From Thermoplasmata archaeon (GTDB lineage: Archaea; Thermoplasmatota; Thermoplasmata; Lutacidiplasmatales; SKW197), in assembly GCA_026414225.1 (NCBI GenBank), contig JAOAJK010000013.1:16536-40535 (forward strand): a stretch of DNA of 24,000 nt. Reading direction: 5' to 3'. Each line of letters begins with the position of its first letter. Positions within the stretch are counted from its first letter, which is position 1. Below the pieces are notes generated by a model. It made no database searches. It saw only the letters and a list, made by a program, of their open reading frames with translations, and was not told the origin of the DNA. This document shows positions 5,785-21,100 of the stretch, piece after piece. The translations under genes were made by a program, and so were the position numbers.

Positions 5785-7470
5785 TTACAGCACCAGCGGG
5801 AGCAACAGGAATGAGAATAGCAGTCCCAGTCCCGTCACGACCGCCGCAAAGGCAATATAGAGATAGGAGGTATAAATCTTTCTGCTTTCTCCACCATCCA
5901 AAGGATACATTCTGTAGAGCTCGAGATAGGGGATTATTCTCCGGCGATACCATCCCTCGACAACAACTGTTTTACCAACATGTTTCTCAGTGCCGAAGAT
6001 TCCCACGAAGAAGTCAATCAACTTTGAAATCTGGTGATAGTCAATCAGCAAGAGACCGGTTCCATCGTCAATCTTCAGATCTTCGGAATAGAACAAGCCC
6101 GGGATTCCACGCCCTATGATTCTCCCCTGCAGCCGGACCGGGATACCCTTTATCGGCGACGCCTTCGGATTTTCCAGCAGAGTCACCACTTCACTGTCCT
6201 TAAATCTAAACGGATACGCATAGCCGAGAAGGTAAACGAGACCCCAGGCACCTGTGACCACCATGAAAAATGCACAGCTGAACAGGAATGTCCAGGCAAA
6301 TTTCTGCTCCGTAAAACCATGGGTCCAGCCATACCACATCAGCAGAATCCCGGTTACGAATCCGAGGATTAAACCTCCGTATTTCGCAAATATGTCCTTC
6401 AGAAAGTCGTCCCAGTAGCACTCTGGCTTTTTCAGTTTAAACTGCACAAGGGGTTTCTGCCCCATTTTTTCCGCGATTTCTCCGAGTTTTTTAAGCCGTT
6501 TTGCAGGCAGTGGATGGGTTGACTGAATCTCCAGCCACCATGCCCACGGATTCCAGAGGTCCCATGCCATTGCCTTCTGTATCGTTTCAACCGAGTAATT
6601 TCCATACGCATCTGCACTCATTGCTGCAAGGGCTCGTGCACTATCTGCATTGAAAATTCCCAGGGAAGAAACATGTTTCAGGTGTCCTTTCTCAGAAGCC
6701 TCTCCGAGCCCCTGGGTTGCCATGCCATACGCAATTTTTAGAAGGGCTGAGGCGAGGGCGTTGGGTTTTCTGGTGCTTTCCGCAGCATACTCATCCGCAT
6801 AGTACTCCCTGTACCTGCTTATAAGGAGCGCAACAAACTGGGAGAGAATGTAAATCAGGTAAGAAAAGGCTGCGGTGATGAGAAAAACAAGCGCGGCCTG
6901 TCCCCCGCTCTTTTTCCCCTTTGGCATATACCTCAATACCTGGATGGACACCCTCGCGATTATGTAGAAAATCAGGGGAATTGCAGAGACAATTGTCATC
7001 AAAACAAAATCATCATGGACTATGTGCCCCATTTCATGGGCAATAACCGCCTTGGCTTCATCCGTGTCACAGTATTCCAGAACCCCTCTCGTAATGGCAA
7101 CCCTGGCATGGTTCTTTGTCCAGCCAAATGTAAACGCATTCGGGTTCAGGTCATCGATGATTCCCACTCTCGGAAGGTTTATTCTCTCCTTCGCACACAC
7201 ATCTGTGATGTAGGTGGCAATCGCGGGTGGAAGTGCCTCAAGTGAGACCCACTCAATCTTGTAAATCCAGGAGAGGATGAATGGTGAAATTGCCCACTGG
7301 AGAAAGACCACGAAGATTGCAAAGCATAGCGGGATAATCAGCAGCCAGATACCCTGGATAAGCCCAAAGTATTCCAGAACAGCAATGAACCCCATTCCCA
7401 CAGCAAACACGAGCCCGAAGAGGAGGGCAAGTGCTATTGCCATTCTCGTCTTCAGCCCCATCTCCATCAC
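5785..7470 (-). CDS. M48-family (HtpX/Ste24-like) zinc metalloprotease, membrane-bound, with an extended C-terminal region
   Basis: The HExxH motif is HEMGHIVHDD. There are N-terminal TM helices, additional TM helices, and a ~130-aa C-terminal domain after the peptidase core (HPLPAKRLKKL is typical of the M48 C-terminal helix). The start is uncertain within three codons (GTG 7470, ATG 7467, ATG 7461 with an upstream GGTGA). Confidence 0.8.
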   Translation of the reverse strand: MMEMGLKTRMAIALALLFGLVFAVGMGFIAVLEYFGLIQGIWLLIIPLCFAIFVVFLQWAISPFILSWIYKIEWVSLEALPPAIATYITDVCAKERINLPRVGIIDDLNPNAFTFGWTKNHARVAITRGVLEYCDTDEAKAVIAHEMGHIVHDDFVLMTIVSAIPLIFYIIARVSIQVLRYMPKGKKSGGQAALVFLITAAFSYLIYILSQFVALLISRYREYYADEYAAESTRKPNALASALLKIAYGMATQGLGEASEKGHLKHVSSLGIFNADSARALAAMSADAYGNYSVETIQKAMAWDLWNPWAWWLEIQSTHPLPAKRLKKLGEIAEKMGQKPLVQFKLKKPECYWDDFLKDIFAKYGGLILGFVTGILLMWYGWTHGFTEQKFAWTFLFSCAFFMVVTGAWGLVYLLGYAYPFRFKDSEVVTLLENPKASPIKGIPVRLQGRIIGRGIPGLFYSEDLKIDDGTGLLLIDYHQISKLIDFFVGIFGTEKHVGKTVVVEGWYRRRIIPYLELYRMYPLDGGESRKIYTSYLYIAFAAVVTGLGLLFSFLLLPLVL

Positions 7471-8923: not shown

Positions 8924-9283
8924 TTAAGGTGCTTTTACTGCGTCCGCTGCCTTCTGCATTTCCGAAAGCACCATGTTCGTATCCTTCGCACTGTCCACAA
9001 CGCAAATCAATAGCGCCTTCTTCCCGGCACCCAGAATTATGGTCCTGGTGTCGGAACTCTCAATCACTATCCTCTCCGGTGTTGCCCTCTTCAGCTCAGA
9101 TGTAGCAGTTATGCTCGCTCCCAGAATTGTGGCGCACATTATTGCGAAGGTTTCCGTGTATACCCCTGGCGGCATCTCTGCAGCAATAACAAGACCGTCC
9201 CTGCTCACCACCGCCACTGCAATTGCCCCAGTGCTTATTTTCAGATTCTTCACAACTTCATTCATATTCACTGGCATTTTCAT
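8924..9283 (-). CDS. Roadblock/LC7 (MglB-like) domain protein
   Basis: 119 aa. GAIAVAVVSRDGLVIAAEMPPGVYTETFAIMCATILGASITATSELK...IVIESSDTRTIILGAGKKALLICVV matches the Roadblock/LC7 pattern. Confidence 0.75.
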   Translation of the reverse strand: MKMPVNMNEVVKNLKISTGAIAVAVVSRDGLVIAAEMPPGVYTETFAIMCATILGASITATSELKRATPERIVIESSDTRTIILGAGKKALLICVVDSAKDTNMVLSEMQKAADAVKAP

Positions 9284-9289
9284 TCCTCC

Positions 9290-9691
9290 CTATATCGCCT
9301 CAATCTTAAACACGCATTTATCTTTCCCTGTGCTTTCACATTCGACCTCGACACAATGGACCTTTGTGTTGTAATATACTTCATAGACCTGTCTTATCAG
9401 TCCCCTGAGTCTATGACATGTAGGTATCTCCGAAGGTGTGATTTCTATAGATCCCTTCACAACGACCTCGTGCTCCTTGAAAGAAATCTCATCCGCCCAG
9501 CCCCTGTTCTTTATCAGCATCTCCACAATCTTGAAGTAGTTTCCCTTGTCCTTCATTGCTTCATTTGCAATTTCTGCGCCGAATATTGAACCCTCTCTGA
9601 AGAATAGCCCATGACAGGCATGGGACATCACGCCTTCGTAAAGTTCCTTGATTTTCACCAGTTCCGCCTGTGATATCCTGACGAACTTCAT
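9290..9691 (-). CDS. V4R (4-vinyl reductase-type) small-molecule-binding domain protein
   Basis: The ORF is 9290..9709 with a TTG start. The ATG at 9691 (MKFVRISQAEL...) lies ~25 nt downstream of a TATA-like box (minus strand ctttatattt, + coordinates 9713-9722), consistent with a leaderless mRNA. The sequence FFREGSIFGAEIA...CHRLRGLIRQVYEVYYNTKVHCVEVECESTGKDKCVFKI has the V4R hallmark C...G..G...ExxCxxxGxxxCxF. Confidence 0.7.
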   Translation of the reverse strand: MKFVRISQAELVKIKELYEGVMSHACHGLFFREGSIFGAEIANEAMKDKGNYFKIVEMLIKNRGWADEISFKEHEVVVKGSIEITPSEIPTCHRLRGLIRQVYEVYYNTKVHCVEVECESTGKDKCVFKIEAI

Positions 9692-9864
9692 GCTACCATG
9701 AAATCGCAAATCAAATATAAAGTTTTGCTTTCATTTTGAAGGCTTCTCTCCTAAATGCCGCAATCCCGAATAAGGGGTAGGCAGAGGTTTCCTGATGGAA
9801 AGGTTAGATGCTGCTAGCCCTGTGAACCAATAAGAAATAAATATTGCAAGAGTATTTCCTCACC

Positions 9865-12579
9865 ATGGCTACAAAAAATCTATGGTATGCCATGGAAACG
9901 AAAGAAACACTGGCACTTTTAAAGACCTCTGCTGAAAAGGGGCTTACATCTGAAGAAGCGCGGCGGAGATTGTCAAAAGGAAAAAATGTGCTTGCCGAGA
10001 AAAAAAAGGAACATCCAGTGATTAAATTTTTAAATCAGTTCAAGAGCATTCCAATTATTATGCTTATTGTTGCTGCGATAATAACTGTTATTTTAACAAT
10101 TTTTACTGAAGAAAATCATCTATCTGATACGGTCGCGATTCTGATAGCGATAACAATCAATGCGGTGATGGGCTACATGATGGAGGCAAGGGCGGAGAAG
10201 GCCATGGAAGCCCTGAAGAGAATGACTGCACCCAAAACAAAAGTGGTAAGAGATGGAACCTGCCAGGAAATTCTCGTGGAAGATGTGGTCCCAGGCGATA
10301 TCGTGCTCCTGGAGGAGGGGGACAAGGTTCCTGCAGACATTCGCCTTATAGAAACCACAAATCTGGAAGTGGATGAATCTATGCTCACAGGGGAGAGTGT
10401 TACGGTGCAGAAGGATGCCCATGCATGTCCAGAAGACGCTGAAAAGTGGGAGAGAACGAATCTGGTATACATGGGCACAATTGTGGCAAGAGGACGGGCG
10501 AAAGGAGTCGTTTTCCACACGGGGATGGAGACAGAACTTGGAAAAATTGCAAAACTTGTGCAGGAAAGTGAAGGCGAGGAAACTCCCCTCCAGAAAAGCA
10601 TCGATACACTCGGCAAACAAATTGGCTACATTGCAATAGCGATTTCTACCTTGCTCTTTTTCACAGCCACCGCAATTTCCCAAACCCATCTTTCCCAGAA
10701 CTTTCTGCTTGCAATTAGCTTGGCAGTCGCAATAATCCCAGAGGGGCTTCCAATCGTGCTCGTGGTTACCCTCGCAATCGGAATGCAGGTGATGGCAAAG
10801 CGGAACGCAATCGTTCGCCGCCTAATGTGCGTGGAAACCCTAGGATGCACCTCTGTCATCTGCACTGATAAAACTGGCACGCTTACGAAAAACCAGATGA
10901 CTGTAAAAGAAGTGTTTGTGGACGGTGAAATTCTTTCGGTAAGTGGCACTGGCTATGAACCAAAAGGTGAGATTGAAAACGCCGGTGAGCATAAGGGAAG
11001 CATTGACCTTCTAACAAGGATTGGAATTCTCTGCAACAATGCAAATCTACTTGAGGAAAATAACGCCTGGAAGGTCATTGGAGATCCGACCGAGGGGGCG
11101 CTCCTTGCGCTCGCCGGAAAGGTGGGTGCTGTTCCGAAGCAGTTCCACACCAAATACAGGCGAATTTACGAGAAGGTGTTTGATCCTAAGAAAAAGATAA
11201 TGAGCACGATAAATGAGGTGGATGGAAAGAAGGTGATCCACATCAAAGGTGCACCTGAGGTTATTCTCTCGCTTTCTGGGAATTTCTGGCACAACGGAAA
11301 AGTTTTGCCGCTATCCCACCAACACCGCACGGCAATTGAGATTGCAAACAAGAGAATGGCATCGATGGGATACAGGGTGCTGGCTCTCGGATACAAAGAG
11401 ATAGAACAAATCCCAGAGAATGTGGAGGACATGGAGAAAAACATGACCTTTGTTGGCCTTGTGGGTATAATAGACCCGCCAAGACCAGAAGTAAAGAATG
11501 CAATCAAAACCTGTCATGAAGCAGGCATAAAGGTTGTAATGATCACCGGCGACCAGAAGGACACAGCAATAGCAATTGCAAAGCAGCTCGGAATCTGGAG
11601 CGGGAAGATTCTTACAGGTAGCGAACTTGAAAAGATGAGTGATGATGAACTGGCTAAAATCGTGGAAGAAGTGAGCGTTTATGCTAGGGTCCATCCCGAG
11701 ATGAAGTTAAAGATTGTGCGGGCTTTCAAGAAGAGGGGGCATGTGGTCGCAATGACTGGCGATGGCGTGAATGATGCACCTGCCCTTGCAAATGCGGATA
11801 TTGGAATTTCCATGGGAATTACCGGCACAGATGTGGCTAAGGATGCCAGTGGAATCGTGCTTGCGGACGACAATTTTGCAACTATTGTAAAAGCGGTTGA
11901 AGAGGGAAGAAAGATATATGAGAACATACGGAAATTTGTGAGATACCAGATAACCACGAATATCGGGGCGACCACACTGGTATTTCTTGCAATATTCACC
12001 GTACCTGGTGTGATCCCTCTCTACCCCGTACAAATTCTCTGGGTGAACATACTAATCGACGGTCCGCCTGCCCAGGCACTCGGACTTGAGCCCGCTACAA
12101 GGAAGATAATGAAGAACAAGCCCAGAAATCCGAAGGAACACATCCTCTCGAGGGAAATGGTATCCGCAATTCTTGTGAATGGACTGGCAATGGCGTTTCT
12201 CACACTCCTCGTGTTCTGGTATTCCTACAATTTTGCACCTGGTGAGTTTATGGATGCTCCTGCTGAAAGAGAGGCGTATGCCCAGACAATGACATTCACT
12301 ACATTTGTGGTATTCCAAGTGTACAGCGTCCTCAACTGCAGAAACCTGCGGGAGTCCCTGTTCAGTTTAAAGATGAATAACCGTTTGCTTTTAATTACAA
12401 TAGTTCTGGCGCTGCTTCTCCAGCTTTTTGCAGTTTACATGCCATTCATGAATTCAACCTTCAGAACAATTCCAATCAGAGCTGTTGACTGGCTTACGAT
12501 ATTCCTGCTGGGCATCATCCTGATTTGTGTGGATGAGATACGGAAGCTTGTGATGCGCCACCGCAGGGGTGATGTATGA
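9865..12579 (+). CDS. P-type ATPase, type IIA (Ca2+/cation-transporting, SERCA/PMR1-like)
   Basis: Motifs are TGES (LTGESVTVQK), PEGLP (IIPEGLPIVL), the phosphorylation site ICTDKTGTLT, KGAPE, MITGDQ and GDGVNDAPALANADIGISMG, with 10 predicted TM helices. The ORF track starts at a TTG (9844). The ATG at 9865 (MATKNLWYAMETKE) lies ~20-25 nt downstream of the TATA-like aaataaatatt (9834-9844). Confidence 0.9.
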   Translation: MATKNLWYAMETKETLALLKTSAEKGLTSEEARRRLSKGKNVLAEKKKEHPVIKFLNQFKSIPIIMLIVAAIITVILTIFTEENHLSDTVAILIAITINAVMGYMMEARAEKAMEALKRMTAPKTKVVRDGTCQEILVEDVVPGDIVLLEEGDKVPADIRLIETTNLEVDESMLTGESVTVQKDAHACPEDAEKWERTNLVYMGTIVARGRAKGVVFHTGMETELGKIAKLVQESEGEETPLQKSIDTLGKQIGYIAIAISTLLFFTATAISQTHLSQNFLLAISLAVAIIPEGLPIVLVVTLAIGMQVMAKRNAIVRRLMCVETLGCTSVICTDKTGTLTKNQMTVKEVFVDGEILSVSGTGYEPKGEIENAGEHKGSIDLLTRIGILCNNANLLEENNAWKVIGDPTEGALLALAGKVGAVPKQFHTKYRRIYEKVFDPKKKIMSTINEVDGKKVIHIKGAPEVILSLSGNFWHNGKVLPLSHQHRTAIEIANKRMASMGYRVLALGYKEIEQIPENVEDMEKNMTFVGLVGIIDPPRPEVKNAIKTCHEAGIKVVMITGDQKDTAIAIAKQLGIWSGKILTGSELEKMSDDELAKIVEEVSVYARVHPEMKLKIVRAFKKRGHVVAMTGDGVNDAPALANADIGISMGITGTDVAKDASGIVLADDNFATIVKAVEEGRKIYENIRKFVRYQITTNIGATTLVFLAIFTVPGVIPLYPVQILWVNILIDGPPAQALGLEPATRKIMKNKPRNPKEHILSREMVSAILVNGLAMAFLTLLVFWYSYNFAPGEFMDAPAEREAYAQTMTFTTFVVFQVYSVLNCRNLRESLFSLKMNNRLLLITIVLALLLQLFAVYMPFMNSTFRTIPIRAVDWLTIFLLGIILICVDEIRKLVMRHRRGDV

Positions 12580-12941
12580 GCGTTGGGAGCATGGGGGTGG
12601 ACATTTACTTCGTTTTGATAACTCTAATCCTTTTTTTTGGCTTTTTTGTCAGCCCTTTCTTCTCCGCATTTGCAGGTGCTGGCCAGGGAAGAAACACTGA
12701 ATCGCCAGGAATCATGGGGGTCTTCATGAGAAACGTAAGGCGGAGAAAGGAGGCCCTGTTTGTATGGGGAATCCTGGCCCTCGCAGATGCAGTTCTGGCA
12801 ACAGTTTTTCTCCAGATGCTGCCGGCAATCCCCTTACCTCTCGCTTTCCTCTGTGTCGGCGCGATAATCTTCATTTATGTGGTTGAAATTCACGGGATCA
12901 ACAAAATGTTTGGAAGGGGAGATGTAGAAAATGGAAATTAA
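12576..12941 (+). CDS. Small hypothetical membrane protein (about 3 TM helices), translationally coupled to both neighbours
   Basis: 121 aa. The ATG overlaps the ATPase stop (ATGA at 12576-12579) and is preceded by AGGGGTGAT. The 3' end overlaps the EndoQ start by 11 nt. Hydrophobic helices include VDIYFVLITLILFFGFFVSPFF, LFVWGILALADAVLATVFLQML and LPLAFLCVGAIIFIYVV. I recognise no family. Confidence 0.5.
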   Translation: MSVGSMGVDIYFVLITLILFFGFFVSPFFSAFAGAGQGRNTESPGIMGVFMRNVRRRKEALFVWGILALADAVLATVFLQMLPAIPLPLAFLCVGAIIFIYVVEIHGINKMFGRGDVENGN

Positions 12942-14202
12942 TGCAGACCTCCACATTCACAGCCGTTACTCGGGTGGGACGAGCGATGTCATGAATATGC
13001 GCAATCTATCCAAGGGTGCAAGCCAGAAAGGAATAAACTTGATTGGTTCCGGAGATTGCCTTCATCCCAGATGGCTTGAGGAAATAAAGGCACTGGAAAA
13101 GGTGGATGAGGGAACTTTCGAAATTGGGGGTCTGAGAGTGATTTTAACCTGTGAGGTAGAGGACTGCGACAGGGTACACCACCTGCTTATGTTCCCTTCA
13201 ATTTCAAAGGTAGAGGAATTTTCAGAAAAGATTCTCTCGAAGGTATCAGACCTCACAACCGATGGCCGGCCCAGGTTTCATGGAAATGGGGCGGATCTCG
13301 CAGCGATCGCAAGGGACTGTGGGGTCCTTATCGGCCCCTGCCATGCGTTCACTCCCTGGACATCCGTATATGCTGCGTTTGATTCGCTGAAAGAGTGCTA
13401 TGGGGAACTTGTGGGATATGTGGGTTACATAGAACTCGGGCTGAGCGCGGACACCTCTTATGCGGACAGAATTGCAGAACTCCATGACCTTACCTTCCTT
13501 ACAAATTCCGATGCCCATTCTCCCTGGCCTGTACGGCTTGCCAGGGAATTCATGCGGATGGAAGTTGAGGAGGCAATTTTCGAAGAAGTGGCTATGGCTA
13601 TACTTCGAAGGAAAGGGAGACAGGTAGTGCTGAATGTGGGTGTGCCACCAGAAGAGGGAAAGTACAATGAGAGTGCATGCATAAAATGCTACGCCCATTA
13701 CACCCTGAATGATGCGGTGAGAAATGGCTGGAGGTGCAGGTGCGGGGGCAGAATAAAGAAAGGGGTCCGGGATAGAGTTGAGGAACTGGCAGACTATCCG
13801 GAGCCGAAAACACCTTCCCACAGACCAAGATACATCCACATCATCCCTCTCACGGAAATAATTGCGAAAGCATTGGGCAGCTCTCCAAATAGCAAAAAGG
13901 TTCTTGAAATCTGGGATGGTCTCATCAACAAATTCGGTAATGAGGTGAGAATTTTAATCGATACCGAGATTGAGGAAATCAGCAAGGTAGCACCTCCAGA
14001 GGTCATTAGGGCAATCGCCGCCTTCAGGGCCGGGAAGGTTTTAGTGAAGCCAGGCGGTGGCGGGCAGTATGGAGAAATTGTGATTCCTGACGGCGGTTTA
14101 GAAACGTCCAACATTTCCAGGAATGCCAGTACACCATCAATGAAAAAAGGGGAAAGCGGAAGGGTGAATAGGCACCAGCCAACCCTGGATAGCTTTAGTT
14201 AA
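12931..14202 (+). CDS. Endonuclease Q-like PHP-domain nuclease (TIGR00375 family) with an internal zinc finger
   Basis: 423 aa. The N-terminal PHP motif is ADLHIHSRYSGG. Conserved blocks are LTCEVEDCDRVHHLLMFP, GPCHAFTPWTSVY, ELGLSADTSYAD and NSDAHSPWP. The zinc finger is CIKCYAHY...WRCRCGGRIKKGVRDRVEEL, and the C-terminal block is KPGGGGQYGEIVIP. Length and block order match what I recall of archaeal EndoQ, which cleaves 5' of deaminated bases. Confidence 0.7.
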   Translation: MEINADLHIHSRYSGGTSDVMNMRNLSKGASQKGINLIGSGDCLHPRWLEEIKALEKVDEGTFEIGGLRVILTCEVEDCDRVHHLLMFPSISKVEEFSEKILSKVSDLTTDGRPRFHGNGADLAAIARDCGVLIGPCHAFTPWTSVYAAFDSLKECYGELVGYVGYIELGLSADTSYADRIAELHDLTFLTNSDAHSPWPVRLAREFMRMEVEEAIFEEVAMAILRRKGRQVVLNVGVPPEEGKYNESACIKCYAHYTLNDAVRNGWRCRCGGRIKKGVRDRVEELADYPEPKTPSHRPRYIHIIPLTEIIAKALGSSPNSKKVLEIWDGLINKFGNEVRILIDTEIEEISKVAPPEVIRAIAAFRAGKVLVKPGGGGQYGEIVIPDGGLETSNISRNASTPSMKKGESGRVNRHQPTLDSFS

Positions 14203-14274: not shown

Positions 14275-15345
14275 ATGTCACCCGAAACTTCAGAAACCAC
14301 GAAATGTCCTTATTGCGGCAAAAACATTCCAAAGGACTCTACAATCTGCTCCTCATGTGGGAAGGAACTGTTTGAGGAGGTGTTCCTCTGTCCTAAATGC
14401 AATGAAGAAGTCGGGGAACTGGATGAAGTGTGTCCTCACTGTGGTGCTAGATTTGCCTCCTCAAAACCCACAAGTTTTCTGGAGACGGGTGGAAGTTACA
14501 TTGCAGAGGATGAAAACCTTGCCTACAGATTGTTCAAGGACCTGCTGGATGCTGGTTTTGCAGGACTGTGTCTGACTAAAAGCAATCCTAGAAAAATCAG
14601 AAAGAGGTACAATGTCAACATCGATGAGATATACTGGCTCACCTCCACCCTGACAAAGGAGAAAACCCTTGACCCCCAGCGGCTGGAGTTTGAAATGACC
14701 TACATCATTGGAGAATTCGTTAAAAATAACTCAAAGCCGGCAATCATTCTGGATGCAATCGGGCTTCTCATAACTGCAAACGGTTTTGAGAAGGTAATTG
14801 ATTTCGTGAAGGGCGTAGTTGACATGGTGTCAGTCAATAACGGTGTGTTCATTGTCCATGTTTCCCCGATTGTTCTAAGCAAGAAGGAAATTGAAACGCT
14901 TAAGCAGTATCTTGAGGTCATAGATTATAAAAAAGCTGGAATAAGCGAACCGGAGAGCATGGAGGAAGAGGAGGGCGAAGAACTTGCAGAACCAGAGGAA
15001 ACCAGAAAGGAGAGTTTTGAACTCATCATGCAGAAATTCAGGTTACTTTCAAGTGAGGCAGAAAAGGAAGAAACTACAAAAAAGAAAAAGGTGGTGGAAG
15101 AAATGTCGATAAGAGTGAAAGTGCGCGATGCTGAGACAGGTGCTTCGCTGGACATGGAACTCGAGCCAGACAATACAATAGACGAGATCATAGAAAGTGT
15201 GGGTACCTACTGGGAGAAGAACATAGGCGTGTATGTGCTCCGTAAGGGAAAGCGCATACTGCGAGGCGAAACCAAAGTGGAGGAAGCAGATATAAGAGAT
15301 GGGGACTTAATGGAGCTCATCCCTGACCCAGAAGGCGGAATTTGA
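14275..15345 (+). CDS. Double zinc ribbon + DUF835 + acidic linker + C-terminal ubiquitin-like (beta-grasp) domain ending in GG-I
   Basis: 356 aa. Residues 11-56 carry four CxxC pairs with regular x10 spacing (CPYC-x10-CSSC-x10-CPKC-x10-CPHC). Residues ~70-217 follow the DUF835 pattern (GGSYIAEDENLAYRLFKDLLDAGFAGLCLTKSNPRKIRKRY...IYWLTS...LDPQRLEFEMTYIIGEFV...PAIILDAIGLLITANGFEKVIDFVKGVVDMVSVNNGVFIVHVSPIVLSKKEIETL). An E-rich linker follows. The last 80 aa are MSIRVKVRDAETGASLDMELEPDNTIDEIIESVGTYWEKNIGVYVLRKGKRILRGETKVEEADIRDGDLMELIPDPEGGI. They show a beta-beta-alpha-beta-beta pattern and a diglycine one residue from the end, as in Ubl precursors. Confidence 0.8.
   Translation: MSPETSETTKCPYCGKNIPKDSTICSSCGKELFEEVFLCPKCNEEVGELDEVCPHCGARFASSKPTSFLETGGSYIAEDENLAYRLFKDLLDAGFAGLCLTKSNPRKIRKRYNVNIDEIYWLTSTLTKEKTLDPQRLEFEMTYIIGEFVKNNSKPAIILDAIGLLITANGFEKVIDFVKGVVDMVSVNNGVFIVHVSPIVLSKKEIETLKQYLEVIDYKKAGISEPESMEEEEGEELAEPEETRKESFELIMQKFRLLSSEAEKEETTKKKKVVEEMSIRVKVRDAETGASLDMELEPDNTIDEIIESVGTYWEKNIGVYVLRKGKRILRGETKVEEADIRDGDLMELIPDPEGGI
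15103..15342 (+). other. Ubiquitin-like beta-grasp module (80 codons) with a possible internal translation start
   Basis: An in-frame ATG at 15103 is preceded by ggtggtggaag, a Shine-Dalgarno-like sequence. The module ends GGI immediately before the TGA (15343-15345). It is located directly upstream of the E2, JAMM and E1 genes. Confidence 0.6.
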
Positions 15346-15360
15346 GAGGGGGAATCAGAT

Positions 15361-15903
15361 GTGCCGCTTCCTATCGAAGTATTGAGGCAAAGGTTGTATA
15401 ATGAAATCCTTACATGCAAAAAAGAACTGAGGCACATACTTTCGGTCTCGGATAGCAGTCTGTCCAACTTTCCGATAGAAATAGACCTCACATTTGTAAA
15501 AACGCCTGGACCGTTTCTCTGGGAAGGAAAGGTGACCACCAGGTACACGCACAAGGTAAAAATAATCATCACTGCCCAGTATCCCTATCAGAAGCCAATA
15601 GTAAGATGGCTCAGCCCGATATTCCATCCCAATATAATGCCACCGCATGAAGGTGGTTATGTCTGCACCAAGCTTTTTGATACCTGGACACCCCAGTCGA
15701 CACTCCTGATGTTTATCAAGGGACTTGAGGCCCTGCTTTCAAATCCAAACCCTGGAAACCCTCTCGGGAGCGAGGCATGCCAGAAAGCTGCGGAGTATTT
15801 TGAAAAGCATCCGTACAAACCACCAGTTATAGTAGAAAAGACAAAGACAGAGCATGCTCCGAAGATTGTTGGAGGAGCAGAAGATGGCGAGGGAAAAACC
15901 TAA
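15361..15903 (+). CDS. Ubiquitin-conjugating enzyme E2 (UBC fold)
   Basis: 180 aa. The GTG start is preceded by GAGGGGG (15346-15352). The UBC core is ITAQYPYQKPIVRWLSPIFHPNIMPPHEGGYVCTKLFDTWTPQSTLLMFIKGLEALLSNPNPGNPLGSEA. It contains the HPN triad (res 89-91), the catalytic Cys102 (tgc 15664-15666) about 11 residues after it, a W-x-P after the Cys, and the LL..PNP..PL helix. Confidence 0.85.
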   Translation: MPLPIEVLRQRLYNEILTCKKELRHILSVSDSSLSNFPIEIDLTFVKTPGPFLWEGKVTTRYTHKVKIIITAQYPYQKPIVRWLSPIFHPNIMPPHEGGYVCTKLFDTWTPQSTLLMFIKGLEALLSNPNPGNPLGSEACQKAAEYFEKHPYKPPVIVEKTKTEHAPKIVGGAEDGEGKT

Positions 15904-18509: not shown

Positions 18510-19343
18510 ATGACAGCCAATAAGGTATTGAAGGTGGGAATGCATGACGAGGACATGTTTGATAGAGAAAAGAGAATTCCATGGATCAAATTCAATTTAC
18601 TCCAGAAAAGTAAGGTGCTTGTGGTGGGTGCAGGTGCCCTTGGCAATGAGGTGGGGAAAAACCTGGTTCTCTCAGGTTTCAAGAATATCTCAATAGTGGA
18701 CATGGATAAAATTGTGAAATCCAATTTAAGCAGATGTGCTCTTTTCCGAATTGAAGATGCAGAGAAAGGGCTGCTCAAGGCAGAAGTCCTTGCCAGAGAG
18801 CTGAAAAAACTGGATAAAACCGTGAGGGTTTCCTGGTACTCCAAACCAATTCAGGAACTCCCAGAGGATTTTCTCAAGGAGTTTGACATTATCTTCGGAT
18901 GCCTGGACAACATCATGGCGAGGTTATACATCAACTCCCACGCATACTATTACGGAATTCCCCTGGTAGATGGAGGCACACTCGGTACATCTGGAAAGGT
19001 TCAGGTGGTACTGCCTCCCAGAACCGCATGTATAGAATGCGGAATGAACAAAACCCATTTCAAAAATCTGGAGCAAATCTTTTCTTGCTCGGGAAGGGAG
19101 GATGTGACAATCTACTCTCCGAAGCTGCCAGCGGAAATTACTACTACTGCTGTGATTTCAGCGCTCCAGGTACTCTCAGGAATAAAGATAATCTCAAAAC
19201 AGTATGACTCCCTCCCCTACAACCTGATTTACTATGATGGATACCGGAATGTGTTTGAGGTCCTTGAAGTTCCCCTGAATAGTCACTGTCCCAACCACAT
19301 AACCCAGCCAACAAAACCAAAGAAGGAGAAAAAGAGGAAATAA
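18510..19343 (+). CDS. E1-like Ubl-activating enzyme (ThiF/MoeB/UBA family adenylation domain)
   Basis: The ORF track starts at 18471. The ATG at 18510 sits 1 nt after the JAMM gene stop and is preceded by GGGAGG (18499-18504). It has the Rossmann ATP loop VLVVGAGALGNEVGKNL, the IVDMDKIVKSNLSRCALF block (D-x-D...NL-x-R), FGCLDNIMARLYIN, DGGTLGTSGKVQVV, and the zinc-site pairs CIEC ... CPNH. Confidence 0.85.
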   Translation: MTANKVLKVGMHDEDMFDREKRIPWIKFNLLQKSKVLVVGAGALGNEVGKNLVLSGFKNISIVDMDKIVKSNLSRCALFRIEDAEKGLLKAEVLARELKKLDKTVRVSWYSKPIQELPEDFLKEFDIIFGCLDNIMARLYINSHAYYYGIPLVDGGTLGTSGKVQVVLPPRTACIECGMNKTHFKNLEQIFSCSGREDVTIYSPKLPAEITTTAVISALQVLSGIKIISKQYDSLPYNLIYYDGYRNVFEVLEVPLNSHCPNHITQPTKPKKEKKRK

Positions 19344-19360
19344 AATTTTTAAATTTATTC
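19337..19360. terminator. Possible bidirectional terminator between convergent genes (AT-only imperfect inverted repeat with oligo-T)
   Basis: Only 11 nt separate the E1 stop (19343) from the convergent stop (19355). The sequence gaaataaaatttttaaatttattc contains a T5 run on + and a T4 run on -, and an imperfect inverted repeat (gaaataaaattt / aaatttattc). Archaeal termination commonly uses oligo-T tracts. Confidence 0.3.
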
Positions 19361-21100
19361 AAACCCTGGTGGGAGATATTCGCCAGGTTTCTGGTGCCAT
19401 GCGACGCTCTTCCCTTTCTTCTTCTTCCTCTTCTCTTTCCACTCTGGAATCTTGTGTCTTAGATAGAAATACCAGAGCAGGAAGACCACGAGGACTGTAA
19501 TAACCACCGCTGCAACGATGTATGGCGTGTAGTCGGGCGGTGGCGGCGGCACCTCGGTCATTTTCTGCTTTACCTGTGAGTCAGCATATAGCTCTGTTAT
19601 GCATATGACCCTTAGCTTGAAGAAGTATGTGGTCCCTGGCTGAAGTCCGCCCACTTCTTTATATGTGGTGTCTTTATTGGTAATTACATACCTTTTCTCT
19701 GCATTCTGGGGGTTAGTGGAAATTGTATTGAGATTAGAATCGCAGTAGAGTTCGTATCTCGCGAAGTCGGGTGCAGTGGATGCAGACCAGGTCACATTCA
19801 TCGATGTGGTTGTGACATCAAAAAAGCCAAAAATTTCACAGGGCTGGGGTTTGATTGCCTTTGGATTGTCAAACATGTAAACTCCAGCCGGATTATCTGT
19901 TACTCTGTATGCTGCACCCAGCGCTATGCGACTTCCATCATCGCGGCTCATATCTATGCTGCTCACCAGATCGAAGTCAGTGGAAAGTTCGATGCTGCGG
20001 AACGGTTTATGCACAGGCACATAAATCAGCCACATGTTCTTTGCAGTGGCGACGACAATGTAATTTCCGTCTTTGTCCATGAACGCATTTACAATTGTGT
20101 TGTTATCAGGTGTGGTCCAGTTCCATTTGAACCTCTTCGAGAATTCCATTGTGGAAAAATCGAGGAATGTAATCTGTTTTCCGACCGCCACAAAGCCCTC
20201 ACTGCCCGAATAATTCATAGAAGTGGCTACTGCGTCTCTGATTCCATCAACCCTCCATACCTCCTTGTTCTGGGTCTGGATGAATTTCAGAATTGCATTA
20301 TTGGTGCAGACCATGATAACGGTGCCATCATCGGACATCTTCATTGCGGTAATTCTAGAAAGATAACCTGAACCAAGGATGTCTCTCAAGCGGTCTGTCT
20401 GCCACTTCGGGCCATAAGGGCTATCCCTCTCGTAGAGTTCAAGCCGCACATAGGTGTCTGACTCGGAGACACCGACCACAAAGAATTTACCATCGTAGGA
20501 AGCGGAAAGTCCGTACTTGGCTCTCGCATCGGAAAAACCTGTCTGGTAGTTCCAGAGTTCAGTGCCTGTTTCTACATTGTACATTGAGACATTGTATTTC
20601 CATGTGTTCGACCATCTGTAATAGTAAGTGACCATCAGCAGTTTGCCATCCGCAGAAATATCAAAACCAGTTATATTGCCAGGTCTCGGCTGGGAGACAT
20701 TCCATCCATATTGAGGCGGTTGATTCGGGGAGTAGATGCGGAAAGGTGTCTGCATATCCTGTCTGTAAATCCTGACTGCTCCTCTATCGGAAACGAATAG
20801 CAGCGGCGGGTCTGCCTTCTTTGCAATCTTTATGCCCGTAATGTCAGCACCGTACAACCATGTTCTCACGAGGCTACCCGTGTCCGCCTCAAACAGATAT
20901 ACATTGTTTGCGTAATCGTAGGCACCAATGTATTTGGCGTCATCAGTGATAGAAATCCCTTTTACAGTGCTGTTTGTCTCGTACTTCCAGGTCCATTCGA
21001 GAGCATAGCCACCTTCTGCATTTCTGGGGGCACTATGGGGGTAAACCCCGCTTATCATTATCCAAATCAGCATAAGAACTACGATTCTGCCCGCTTTCAT
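19355..21100 (-). CDS. Secreted, C-terminally membrane-anchored beta-propeller (WD40/PQQ-like repeats) + fibronectin type III domain protein
   Basis: 581 aa. The N-terminal signal or anchor is MKAGRIVVLMLIWIMISGV. There are about 7-8 blade-like repeats of the form I(T/S)x(I/M)xxSxDGxxΦΦΦ (e.g. ITGFDISADGKLLMV, ITAMKMSDDGTVIMV, VNAFMDKDGNYIVVA, VSSIDMSRDDGSRIAL). An FN3-like segment follows (TSMNVTWSASTAPDFARYELY...GLQPGTTYFFKLRV), then a PPPPP linker, the TM helix YIVAAVVITVLVVFLLWYFYL and a basic tail. A GGTGAT Shine-Dalgarno site lies 4 nt before the ATG, and the TATA-like gttataaatacc is at 21130-21141. Confidence 0.7.
   Translation of the reverse strand: MKAGRIVVLMLIWIMISGVYPHSAPRNAEGGYALEWTWKYETNSTVKGISITDDAKYIGAYDYANNVYLFEADTGSLVRTWLYGADITGIKIAKKADPPLLFVSDRGAVRIYRQDMQTPFRIYSPNQPPQYGWNVSQPRPGNITGFDISADGKLLMVTYYYRWSNTWKYNVSMYNVETGTELWNYQTGFSDARAKYGLSASYDGKFFVVGVSESDTYVRLELYERDSPYGPKWQTDRLRDILGSGYLSRITAMKMSDDGTVIMVCTNNAILKFIQTQNKEVWRVDGIRDAVATSMNYSGSEGFVAVGKQITFLDFSTMEFSKRFKWNWTTPDNNTIVNAFMDKDGNYIVVATAKNMWLIYVPVHKPFRSIELSTDFDLVSSIDMSRDDGSRIALGAAYRVTDNPAGVYMFDNPKAIKPQPCEIFGFFDVTTTSMNVTWSASTAPDFARYELYCDSNLNTISTNPQNAEKRYVITNKDTTYKEVGGLQPGTTYFFKLRVICITELYADSQVKQKMTEVPPPPPDYTPYIVAAVVITVLVVFLLWYFYLRHKIPEWKEKRKKKKGKSVAWHQKPGEYLPPGFE

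Follow-up and report, generated by a model that had tools for sequence, protein, structure and literature searches.

The 24,000-nucleotide stretch analysed here (the window; Thermoplasmata archaeon contig JAOAJK010000013.1, positions 16,536 to 40,535) carries a gene in which a double zinc ribbon (DZR), a DUF835 domain, an acidic linker and a C-terminal ubiquitin-like (Ubl) module are encoded in a single open reading frame (ORF), and genes for an E2, a JAMM protease and an E1 directly follow it on the same strand. Comparison with homologous loci indicates that the gene is a formerly separate 79-aa ubiquitin gene merged in frame with an upstream DZR-DUF835 gene in this clade, and that the fusion is an old one, present in few lineages and maintained in them. 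As judged from a Shine-Dalgarno (SD) motif and an ATG retained at the linker/Ubl boundary (15089-15105), the gene probably also yields free Ubl.

The Ubl Module and Its Stand-Alone Relatives

The last 80 aa of the fused protein, modelled alone with AlphaFold2 on an alignment of 24 sequences, gave a beta-beta-alpha-beta-beta-beta fold with a predicted local distance difference test (pLDDT) score of 90.4. When the full-length model was compared with the PDB using Foldseek, the best match was the ubiquitin of Caldiarchaeum subterraneum in the entry with its Rpn11 homologue (6fnn_C, E = 1.7e-6, TM-score 0.76), followed by SUMO, Hub1, NEDD8 and ubiquitin, and the TM-scores of the top matches ranged from 0.76 to 0.87. 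By sequence alone, the profile of the Ubl family matched single ubiquitin chains with E-values of about 1e-6 to 3e-5, where positions 10-79 of the profile align with residues 7-76 of ubiquitin and the Gly-Gly (GG) of the family corresponds to G75-G76. The Pfam scan gave a sub-threshold match to YukD, a beta-grasp family, at aa 279-348 of the fused protein, and no ThiS/MoaD match in the cassette proteins. These results indicate that the Ubl is a true ubiquitin homologue at the sequence level.

Relatives of this module are mostly small separate proteins. When aa 277-356 were used as the query of an exhaustive phmmer search, 64 cluster representatives were obtained; most of them are 76-87 aa long, align from their residue 1 with residue 1 of the query and end in PDPEGG. 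A profile search of a set of 5.8 billion proteins found 341 family members, of which the best 120 are 77-121 aa long, mostly exactly 79 aa, and mostly unannotated or named 'EsaB/YukD family'. When one genome per species was scanned with a pattern derived from an 8-sequence alignment, 191 species carried the Ubl, all of them Thermoplasmata, Methanomassiliicoccales or related metagenome-assembled genomes. For the locus comparisons, 80 loci were retained and the proteins of the window were mapped onto each. The usual gene order in these loci is E1, a small separate Ubl ORF, E2 and a JAMM protein of about 215-270 aa, and the Ubl is a small separate ORF in about 70 of the 80. The stand-alone Ubls share 57-70% identity and the terminus ELIPDPEGG with the Ubl of the window, and their Met1 aligns with M277 of the fused protein. 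An initial annotation of the gene had stated that such Ubls normally stand alone and had proposed a comparison of homologues; the comparison bears this out, both in the 80 loci and in the best 120 of the 341 family members, and places the start of the separate protein at the position of M277. In L014 and L015, the loci of the closest stand-alone relatives, Pfam scans of the genes that precede the Ubl found no DUF835 and no other informative domain.

In 14 of the 80 loci (L018, L020, L031, L035, L037, L039, L041, L042, L064, L075, L077, L078, L080 and L084), the codon aligned to the Met1 of the Ubl (at about locus position 6001 or its equivalent) is CTG, which lies 4-5 nt 3' of a GGTGG motif, usually without a better start nearby. 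This may reflect initiation at CTG or mis-projected starts.

The fused protein ends in PDPEGG-I-stop. G354 and G355, as well as the PDPEGG motif, are invariant in all fused orthologues, and the tails after GG differ among them (I, M, IREGE and LGWQNLYLL). GG was found at the aligned position in all 80 loci, a count that is partly biased since the search pattern contained the first G; 40 of these loci end exactly at GG and 40 have tails of 1-15 residues. The two properties on which the initial annotation relied, a beta-grasp fold and a terminal GG, are thus present, the former by the model, Foldseek and the family profile, and the latter in the fused orthologues as well as in the related loci.

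The module could also be a non-conjugated docking domain, that is, a type-2 Ubl that recruits E1, E2, JAMM or other partners to the DUF835 (iKaiC) protein and is never ligated. Family members without GG do occur within larger proteins, as in the multidomain protein P0033, whose Ubl ends in ELIPDPKPE, and in the Ubl-FHA fusions P0017, P0022 and P0034. However, an invariant PDPEGG at the extreme C-terminus, followed by short and unconserved tails, points to a processed, activatable end, and the cassette contains no other Ubl gene to serve the adjacent E1, E2 and JAMM. We consider a docking role very unlikely for this protein.

Distribution and Maintenance of the Fusion

The DZR-DUF835-Ubl fusion was found only in about six lineages belonging to three deep branches. 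Its members are the protein of the window, P0002 (locus L009), P0003 (L002-L004 and L010), P0004 (L005, L006 and L089), P0005 (L001 and L011; 42% identity) and the protein of L013, which shows 37-45% identity in the N-terminal part and of whose sequence L007 and L008 are fragments. A metagenome scan with the DZR-DUF835 alignment gave, among the matches listed, one extra fused contig, L089, which equals L005. The order common to the whole fused clade is the fusion gene, E2, a JAMM protein with a zinc ribbon and coiled coil, and E1, although the genes on either side differ.

Between the window and L001, the identity is about 39% in the DZR, about 46% in DUF835 and about 71% in the Ubl, and the linker cannot be aligned between the deep branches. 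The linker contains no in-frame stop codon in any of five lineages, where the other five frames carry 1-16; these lineages include L001 and L013, whose linkers have 30% GC and 74 codons. This indicates that selection acts on the full-length fusion protein, which is thus no artefact, and it supports the first outcome proposed in the initial annotation, in which the whole protein is made.

A neutral or artefactual read-through, arising from the recent loss of a stop codon or from an error of assembly or annotation and having no function of its own, would agree with the rarity of the fusions, since about six lineages compare with hundreds of stand-alone genes. It is extremely improbable in view of the following points. 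NCBI holds an identical 356-aa protein and fused orthologues exist in independent assemblies, which argues against an assembly artefact. Orthologues at about 42% identity keep both the fusion and an open linker of 60-74 codons despite a GC content of 30%, and the fused clade shares a derived form of JAMM and a derived position of E1. In addition, the pairing of DUF835 with this Ubl family occurs independently in P0033.

The Putative Internal Start at the Linker/Ubl Boundary

The sequence directly 5' of the in-frame ATG at 15103 (15089-15102) is aAGGTGGTGGAagaa. The resulting site, aaAAGGTG-N9-ATG, has the same motif and spacing as the start of the gene itself (agAAGGTG-N9-ATG). Comparable sites are found just before the Ubl fold in L001, with AGGTGG-N8-ATG at M292, and in L013, with GAGGAGGT-N10-ATG at M291, so that the boundary ATG is in frame and lies 8-10 nt behind an SD motif in each of the three deep branches. 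As the background, in-frame SD and ATG combinations were counted in the long ORFs of these loci, which gave a chance rate of about 0.001 per codon, equal to 4-5% of internal ATGs.

The codons AAA AAG GTG GTG GAA before the ATG are identical in four close lineages of the window's branch. In the same four lineages, full codon identity is seen in only 29 of the 79 columns whose amino acids agree (37%), and in 0 of the 6 Val columns within the Ubl. Within the window, every operon-internal gene is preceded by an SD motif (12576, 12931, 15361, 15884, 18510 and, on the reverse strand, 8924), and the first genes of transcription units have none. Since its SD motif and its spacing match such starts, the internal site has the form of an operon-internal gene start from which the preceding stop codon is missing. 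The initial annotation had pointed to the ATG at 15103 and to an SD-like ggtggtgga before it; both are present in the sequence, and the idea of an internal start gains comparative support from the SD-ATG combination in three branches and from the synonymously invariant SD codons.

These observations need to be weighed against a single product, where the full-length protein is the sole modifier of the clade and the internal SD-ATG is an inert remnant of the start that the gene had before the fusion, or reflects an amino-acid constraint. The linker frame that is open in all lineages, indicating selection for the fusion protein, agrees with a single product, as do the N-terminally extended Ubls of bacterial Bil operons. 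Two further points weigh against a functional internal start. The internal ATG is not found at the same position in every branch, and chance sites exist, as a second SD-like motif and ATG (AGGTG-N11-ATG; M294, 15154-15156) occurs inside the Ubl in some lineages only, where it arises from the conserved residues ETGA...M. On the other hand, no synonymous change is seen in the SD codons, against variation in 63% of comparable columns; the SD-ATG persists in three branches within an otherwise unalignable linker; and its motif and spacing match the real operon-internal starts of this organism. A single product is regarded as somewhat unlikely. The predicted mRNA structure at the internal start is low in the window's branch and not in L001 or L013; because true gene starts are not unstructured either and the branches disagree, mRNA accessibility was not used as evidence.

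The reading that we favour, with moderate confidence, is that of a two-product gene for a conjugatable modifier, which would give both the full-length DZR-iKaiC-Ubl protein and the free Ubl.

Proposed Mechanism

For this system, we infer JAMM trimming, conjugation and translation from the internal start in the following form. Translation of the whole ORF would give the 40-kDa DZR-iKaiC-linker-Ubl protein, and initiation at the internal SD/ATG would give a free Ubl of 80 aa. On either product, the JAMM enzyme would trim Ile356 and expose Gly355, which would be adenylated by E1; the Ubl would be carried by E2 as a thioester and ligated to target lysines. The iKaiC/zinc-ribbon part would be an attached cargo or, in a cassette without an E3, a built-in targeting module. 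Adenylation by E1 depends on a Gly carboxylate that is free at the C-terminus, and both E1 and E2 accept ubiquitin that carries an N-terminal fusion partner. As there is no GG before M277, the JAMM enzyme would not be able to free the Ubl from its N-terminal partner; the full-length form would for this reason be conjugated whole, and free Ubl would come from the internal start only.

The initial annotation considered that the single residue after GG makes processing obligatory, presumably by the adjacent JAMM enzyme. This has a precedent in CsRpn11 of Caldiarchaeum, which cuts its ubiquitin precursor precisely behind GG and has deconjugating activity as well (PMC6043591). As a rule for the family, it does not hold, because half of the relatives (40 of 80) end exactly at GG; tail processing appears to be a lineage-specific need.

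A more far-reaching proposal, which we consider unlikely, is that DUF835 is a dedicated partner of this Ubl family. The gene would then be a device that supplies free ubiquitin and iKaiC-loaded ubiquitin in a ratio set by internal initiation, with the coiled-coil JAMM as eraser or scaffold. In such a device, the loaded form would be joined covalently to targets by E1 and E2 and may be a cargo-carrying ubiquitin or a modifier with a targeting domain that replaces an E3.

Architecture of the Fused Gene and the Cassette

Table 1. Coordinates of the fused gene, its parts and the cassette genes in the window.
Feature	Position	Strand	Remarks
Fused gene, DZR - DUF835 (iKaiC) - acidic linker - Ubl	14275..15345	+	ATG start, 356 aa
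Double zinc ribbon, aa 10-57	14302..14445	+	Pfam DZR 1.3e-7, Zn_ribbon_3 5e-11
DUF835 domain, aa 78-211, classed as inactivated KaiC-like alpha/beta	14506..14907	+	Pfam E 2.7e-26
Acidic linker, aa 217-276	14923..15102	+	20 D+E vs 11 K+R
Internal SD-like motif AGGTGGTGGA	15089..15098	+	AGGTGG core 8 nt before ATG 15103
In-frame ATG (M277)	15103..15105	+	Aligns with Met1 of stand-alone family members
Ubl module M277-G355, 79 aa, C-terminus ELIPDPEGG	15103..15339	+	
Single Ile codon (Ile356) after GG, variable tail	15340..15342	+	
E2, UBC fold, HPN...C active site	15361..15903	+	UQ_con E 8e-14; GTG start after GAGGGGG
Rpn11-like JAMM (EvmG...HSHPGHTCFLSSTD), 874 aa	15884..18508	+	JAB E 4e-14; ATG 15884 with GGAGGA-N7
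ThiF/MoeB-type E1, 277 aa	18510..19343	+	ThiF E 8e-51; ATG 18510 with GGAGGT-N4

As shown in Table 1, the fused gene consists of four parts. The Pfam zinc-ribbon and DZR models span aa 7-57 of the protein, and the cysteines of its four CxxC pairs (CPYC 11-14, CSSC 25-28, CPKC 39-42 and CPHC 53-56) are all invariant across orthologues. The match to DUF835 (PF05763) scores 92.4 bits against a gathering cut-off of 33.1, and the isolated domain scores 95.2 bits. DUF835 has been described as 'iKaiC', an inactivated KaiC-like domain with an output role in archaeal response regulators (Galperin 2018, PMC5847659). In the present protein the domain has no Walker A motif, the equivalent stretch reading GLCLTKSNP, and AlphaFold2 predicts strands alternating with helices. 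The search of PDB sequences with the profile of the fused protein gave no DUF835 match, and its zinc-finger/RING matches were insignificant (E = 0.05-0.7). The linker is predicted by AlphaFold2 to be disordered except for one helix at aa 246-265. The description given in the initial annotation, a 356-aa protein composed of a DZR, DUF835, an acidic linker of about 60 aa and an 80-aa Ubl, agrees with the ORF, the Pfam matches and the AlphaFold2 model.

The closest PDB relatives of the cassette E2 are Rad6/UBE2A and UBE2N, and those of the JAMM protein are Rpn11, CSN5 and CsRpn11. Because of these affinities and that of the Ubl to ubiquitin, the cassette is assigned to the eukaryote-like ubiquitin type and not to the SAMP/MoaD type; the same affinities make it the form that this eukaryote-like archaeal system takes in Thermoplasmata. 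No Pfam match to a RING E3 was obtained in any cassette protein.

The JAMM gene, whose ORF is open from 15854, encodes a JAB domain, a zinc ribbon and an SMC/Rad50-like coiled coil of about 600 aa. In L005, this zinc ribbon resembles the DZR of the Ubl protein, with 44% identity over 27 aa. The long form with zinc ribbon and coiled coil (634-900 aa) occurs in the fused-Ubl clade only, whereas the JAMM proteins of the other loci have about 215-270 aa. The ORF of E1 is open from 18471, and the start at 18510 gives the length of 277 aa called for its homologues. E1 lies downstream of JAMM in the fused clade, whereas it lies directly upstream of the Ubl in the usual loci (L017-L088); thus, the DZR-DUF835 gene occupies the slot that normally belongs to E1.

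The gene upstream of the cassette (12931-14202) encodes a PHP-like protein of the TIGR00375 family (E = 3e-104). It adjoins the cassette in L005 and L006 too and not in L001 or L002, so that the flanks of the cassette vary. Convergent with the E1 gene, the reverse strand carries a gene (19355-21100) for a 581-aa protein with a beta-propeller, an fn3 domain and a C-terminal transmembrane segment, and a gene of this type also adjoins the cassette in L002 and L003. Farther upstream, at 8924-9709 on the reverse strand, a Roadblock/LC7 gene and a gene for a V4R-domain protein adjoin each other and precede a gene for a P-type cation ATPase (9844-12579); these genes have no bearing on the fusion.

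Other Domain Combinations of the Ubl Family

The protein P0033 (1684 aa; L099, 8001-13055, JGI Ga0452210_000044) consists of a FYVE-like zinc finger, TPRs, a coiled coil of about 400 aa, a Ubl, a PE-rich acidic linker and, at the C-terminus, DUF835 (E = 7e-16). Its Ubl is 43% identical to the present family and lacks GG, and its gene is located away from any E1, E2 or JAMM genes. The modules combined in this protein (zinc finger, coiled coil, Ubl and DUF835) are distributed in the window over two proteins, the fused one and the JAMM. Since P0033 joins DUF835 and the Ubl independently, it supports a functional link between the two domains.

P0018 and P0065 are Ubl-E2 fusions of the same family with GG at the junction (PDPTGG, then the UBC domain). 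As GG is kept there, a cut after GG would be needed to release the modifier. In P0017, P0022, P0034 and P0064, the Ubl is fused N-terminally to FHA, or to VWA and a zinc ribbon, and has no GG; these Ubl-FHA and Ubl-VWA forms are presumably adaptor versions that would not be conjugated. P0031 (289 aa) contains two tandem Ubl copies, the first ending in PDPVGG, and then a membrane segment, and P0025 (1200 aa) contains about 12 related Ubl repeats without GG.

Comparison with Known Systems

The cassette resembles the Caldiarchaeum operon (CsUb, E1, E2, a small RING E3 and CsRpn11; Nunoura 2011, Hennell James 2017, Fuchs 2018) in its ubiquitin-fold modifier, UBC-type E2, ThiF-type E1 and Rpn11-like JAMM. 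In both systems, the precursor has residues after GG, which are removed in Caldiarchaeum by CsRpn11. The cassette of the window differs in that it has no RING E3 and belongs to a Thermoplasmata host, from a different phylum, that its Ubl forms the C-terminal end of a zinc-ribbon/iKaiC protein of 356 aa, and that its JAMM bears a zinc ribbon and a coiled coil of about 600 aa.

In Methanomassiliicoccales and other Thermoplasmata, the E1-Ubl-E2-JAMM operons contain the same Ubl family and the same E2, JAMM and E1 partners. There, the Ubl is separate (about 79 aa), E1 is located upstream and JAMM has about 215-270 aa, whereas in the window the Ubl is fused, E1 is located downstream and JAMM has 874 aa. 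The general system was partly known already, since Fort et al. 2015 (PMC4453063) had pointed out an Rpn11-like JAMM of Methanomassiliicoccus luminyensis.

In the bacterial BilABCD/Bub systems, which are ubiquitination-like defence operons (Chambers 2023/2024; Hör 2024), the deubiquitinase pre-processes the C-terminus of the Ubl, and some Ubls have extended N-terminal domains that have been proposed to alter the targets. The cassette shares with them the set of E1, E2, JAMM and Ubl, and their N-terminally extended Ubls are a precedent for the fusion; it differs in its archaeal host and in its N-terminal module of DZR and iKaiC, and nothing in its surroundings points to a defence island. Membership in Bil/Bub or in CBASS Cap2/Cap3 was considered and rejected: PADLOC gave no matches for the Ubl protein and E2, E1 matched only the ThiF core of Cap2-type E1-E2 models, and JAB matched weakly (4.8e-7). 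The SAMP/MoaD/ThiS systems resemble the cassette in having a beta-grasp protein with a C-terminal GG, which in them is activated by a ThiF-family E1 and deconjugated by a JAMM enzyme. However, those systems have no E2, whereas the window encodes a UBC-type E2 and its Ubl profile matches ubiquitin and not MoaD/ThiS.

Among the papers searched, none combined DUF835 with ubiquitin. What is new here is the DZR-iKaiC-Ubl architecture, the coiled-coil JAMM that accompanies it and the ancestral start conserved within the fusion. Among prokaryotic systems, the archaeal E1/E2/Rpn11 operons stand closest to eukaryotic ubiquitylation, and to our knowledge they have no known targets or physiological role. 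In the present Thermoplasmata family, nearly every member is recorded as hypothetical or bears the wrong label 'EsaB/YukD'. A modifier welded to a signalling-type iKaiC domain, together with the recurrence of this pairing in P0033, offers a lead to what the system talks to, and the fused lineage provides a natural experiment on whether a folded domain can travel as cargo on ubiquitin.

In-frame internal initiation that gives two isoforms is known from CheA-L/S, IF2 alpha/beta and ClpB. The likeness to these genes is that an SD motif and ATG inside the ORF would give a short C-terminal isoform beside the full-length protein. The difference is that the short isoform here would be a complete ancestral protein, in an arrangement that stems from gene fusion. 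If this is true, the retained internal start would show plainly how a gene can go on making its ancestral stand-alone protein after a fusion.

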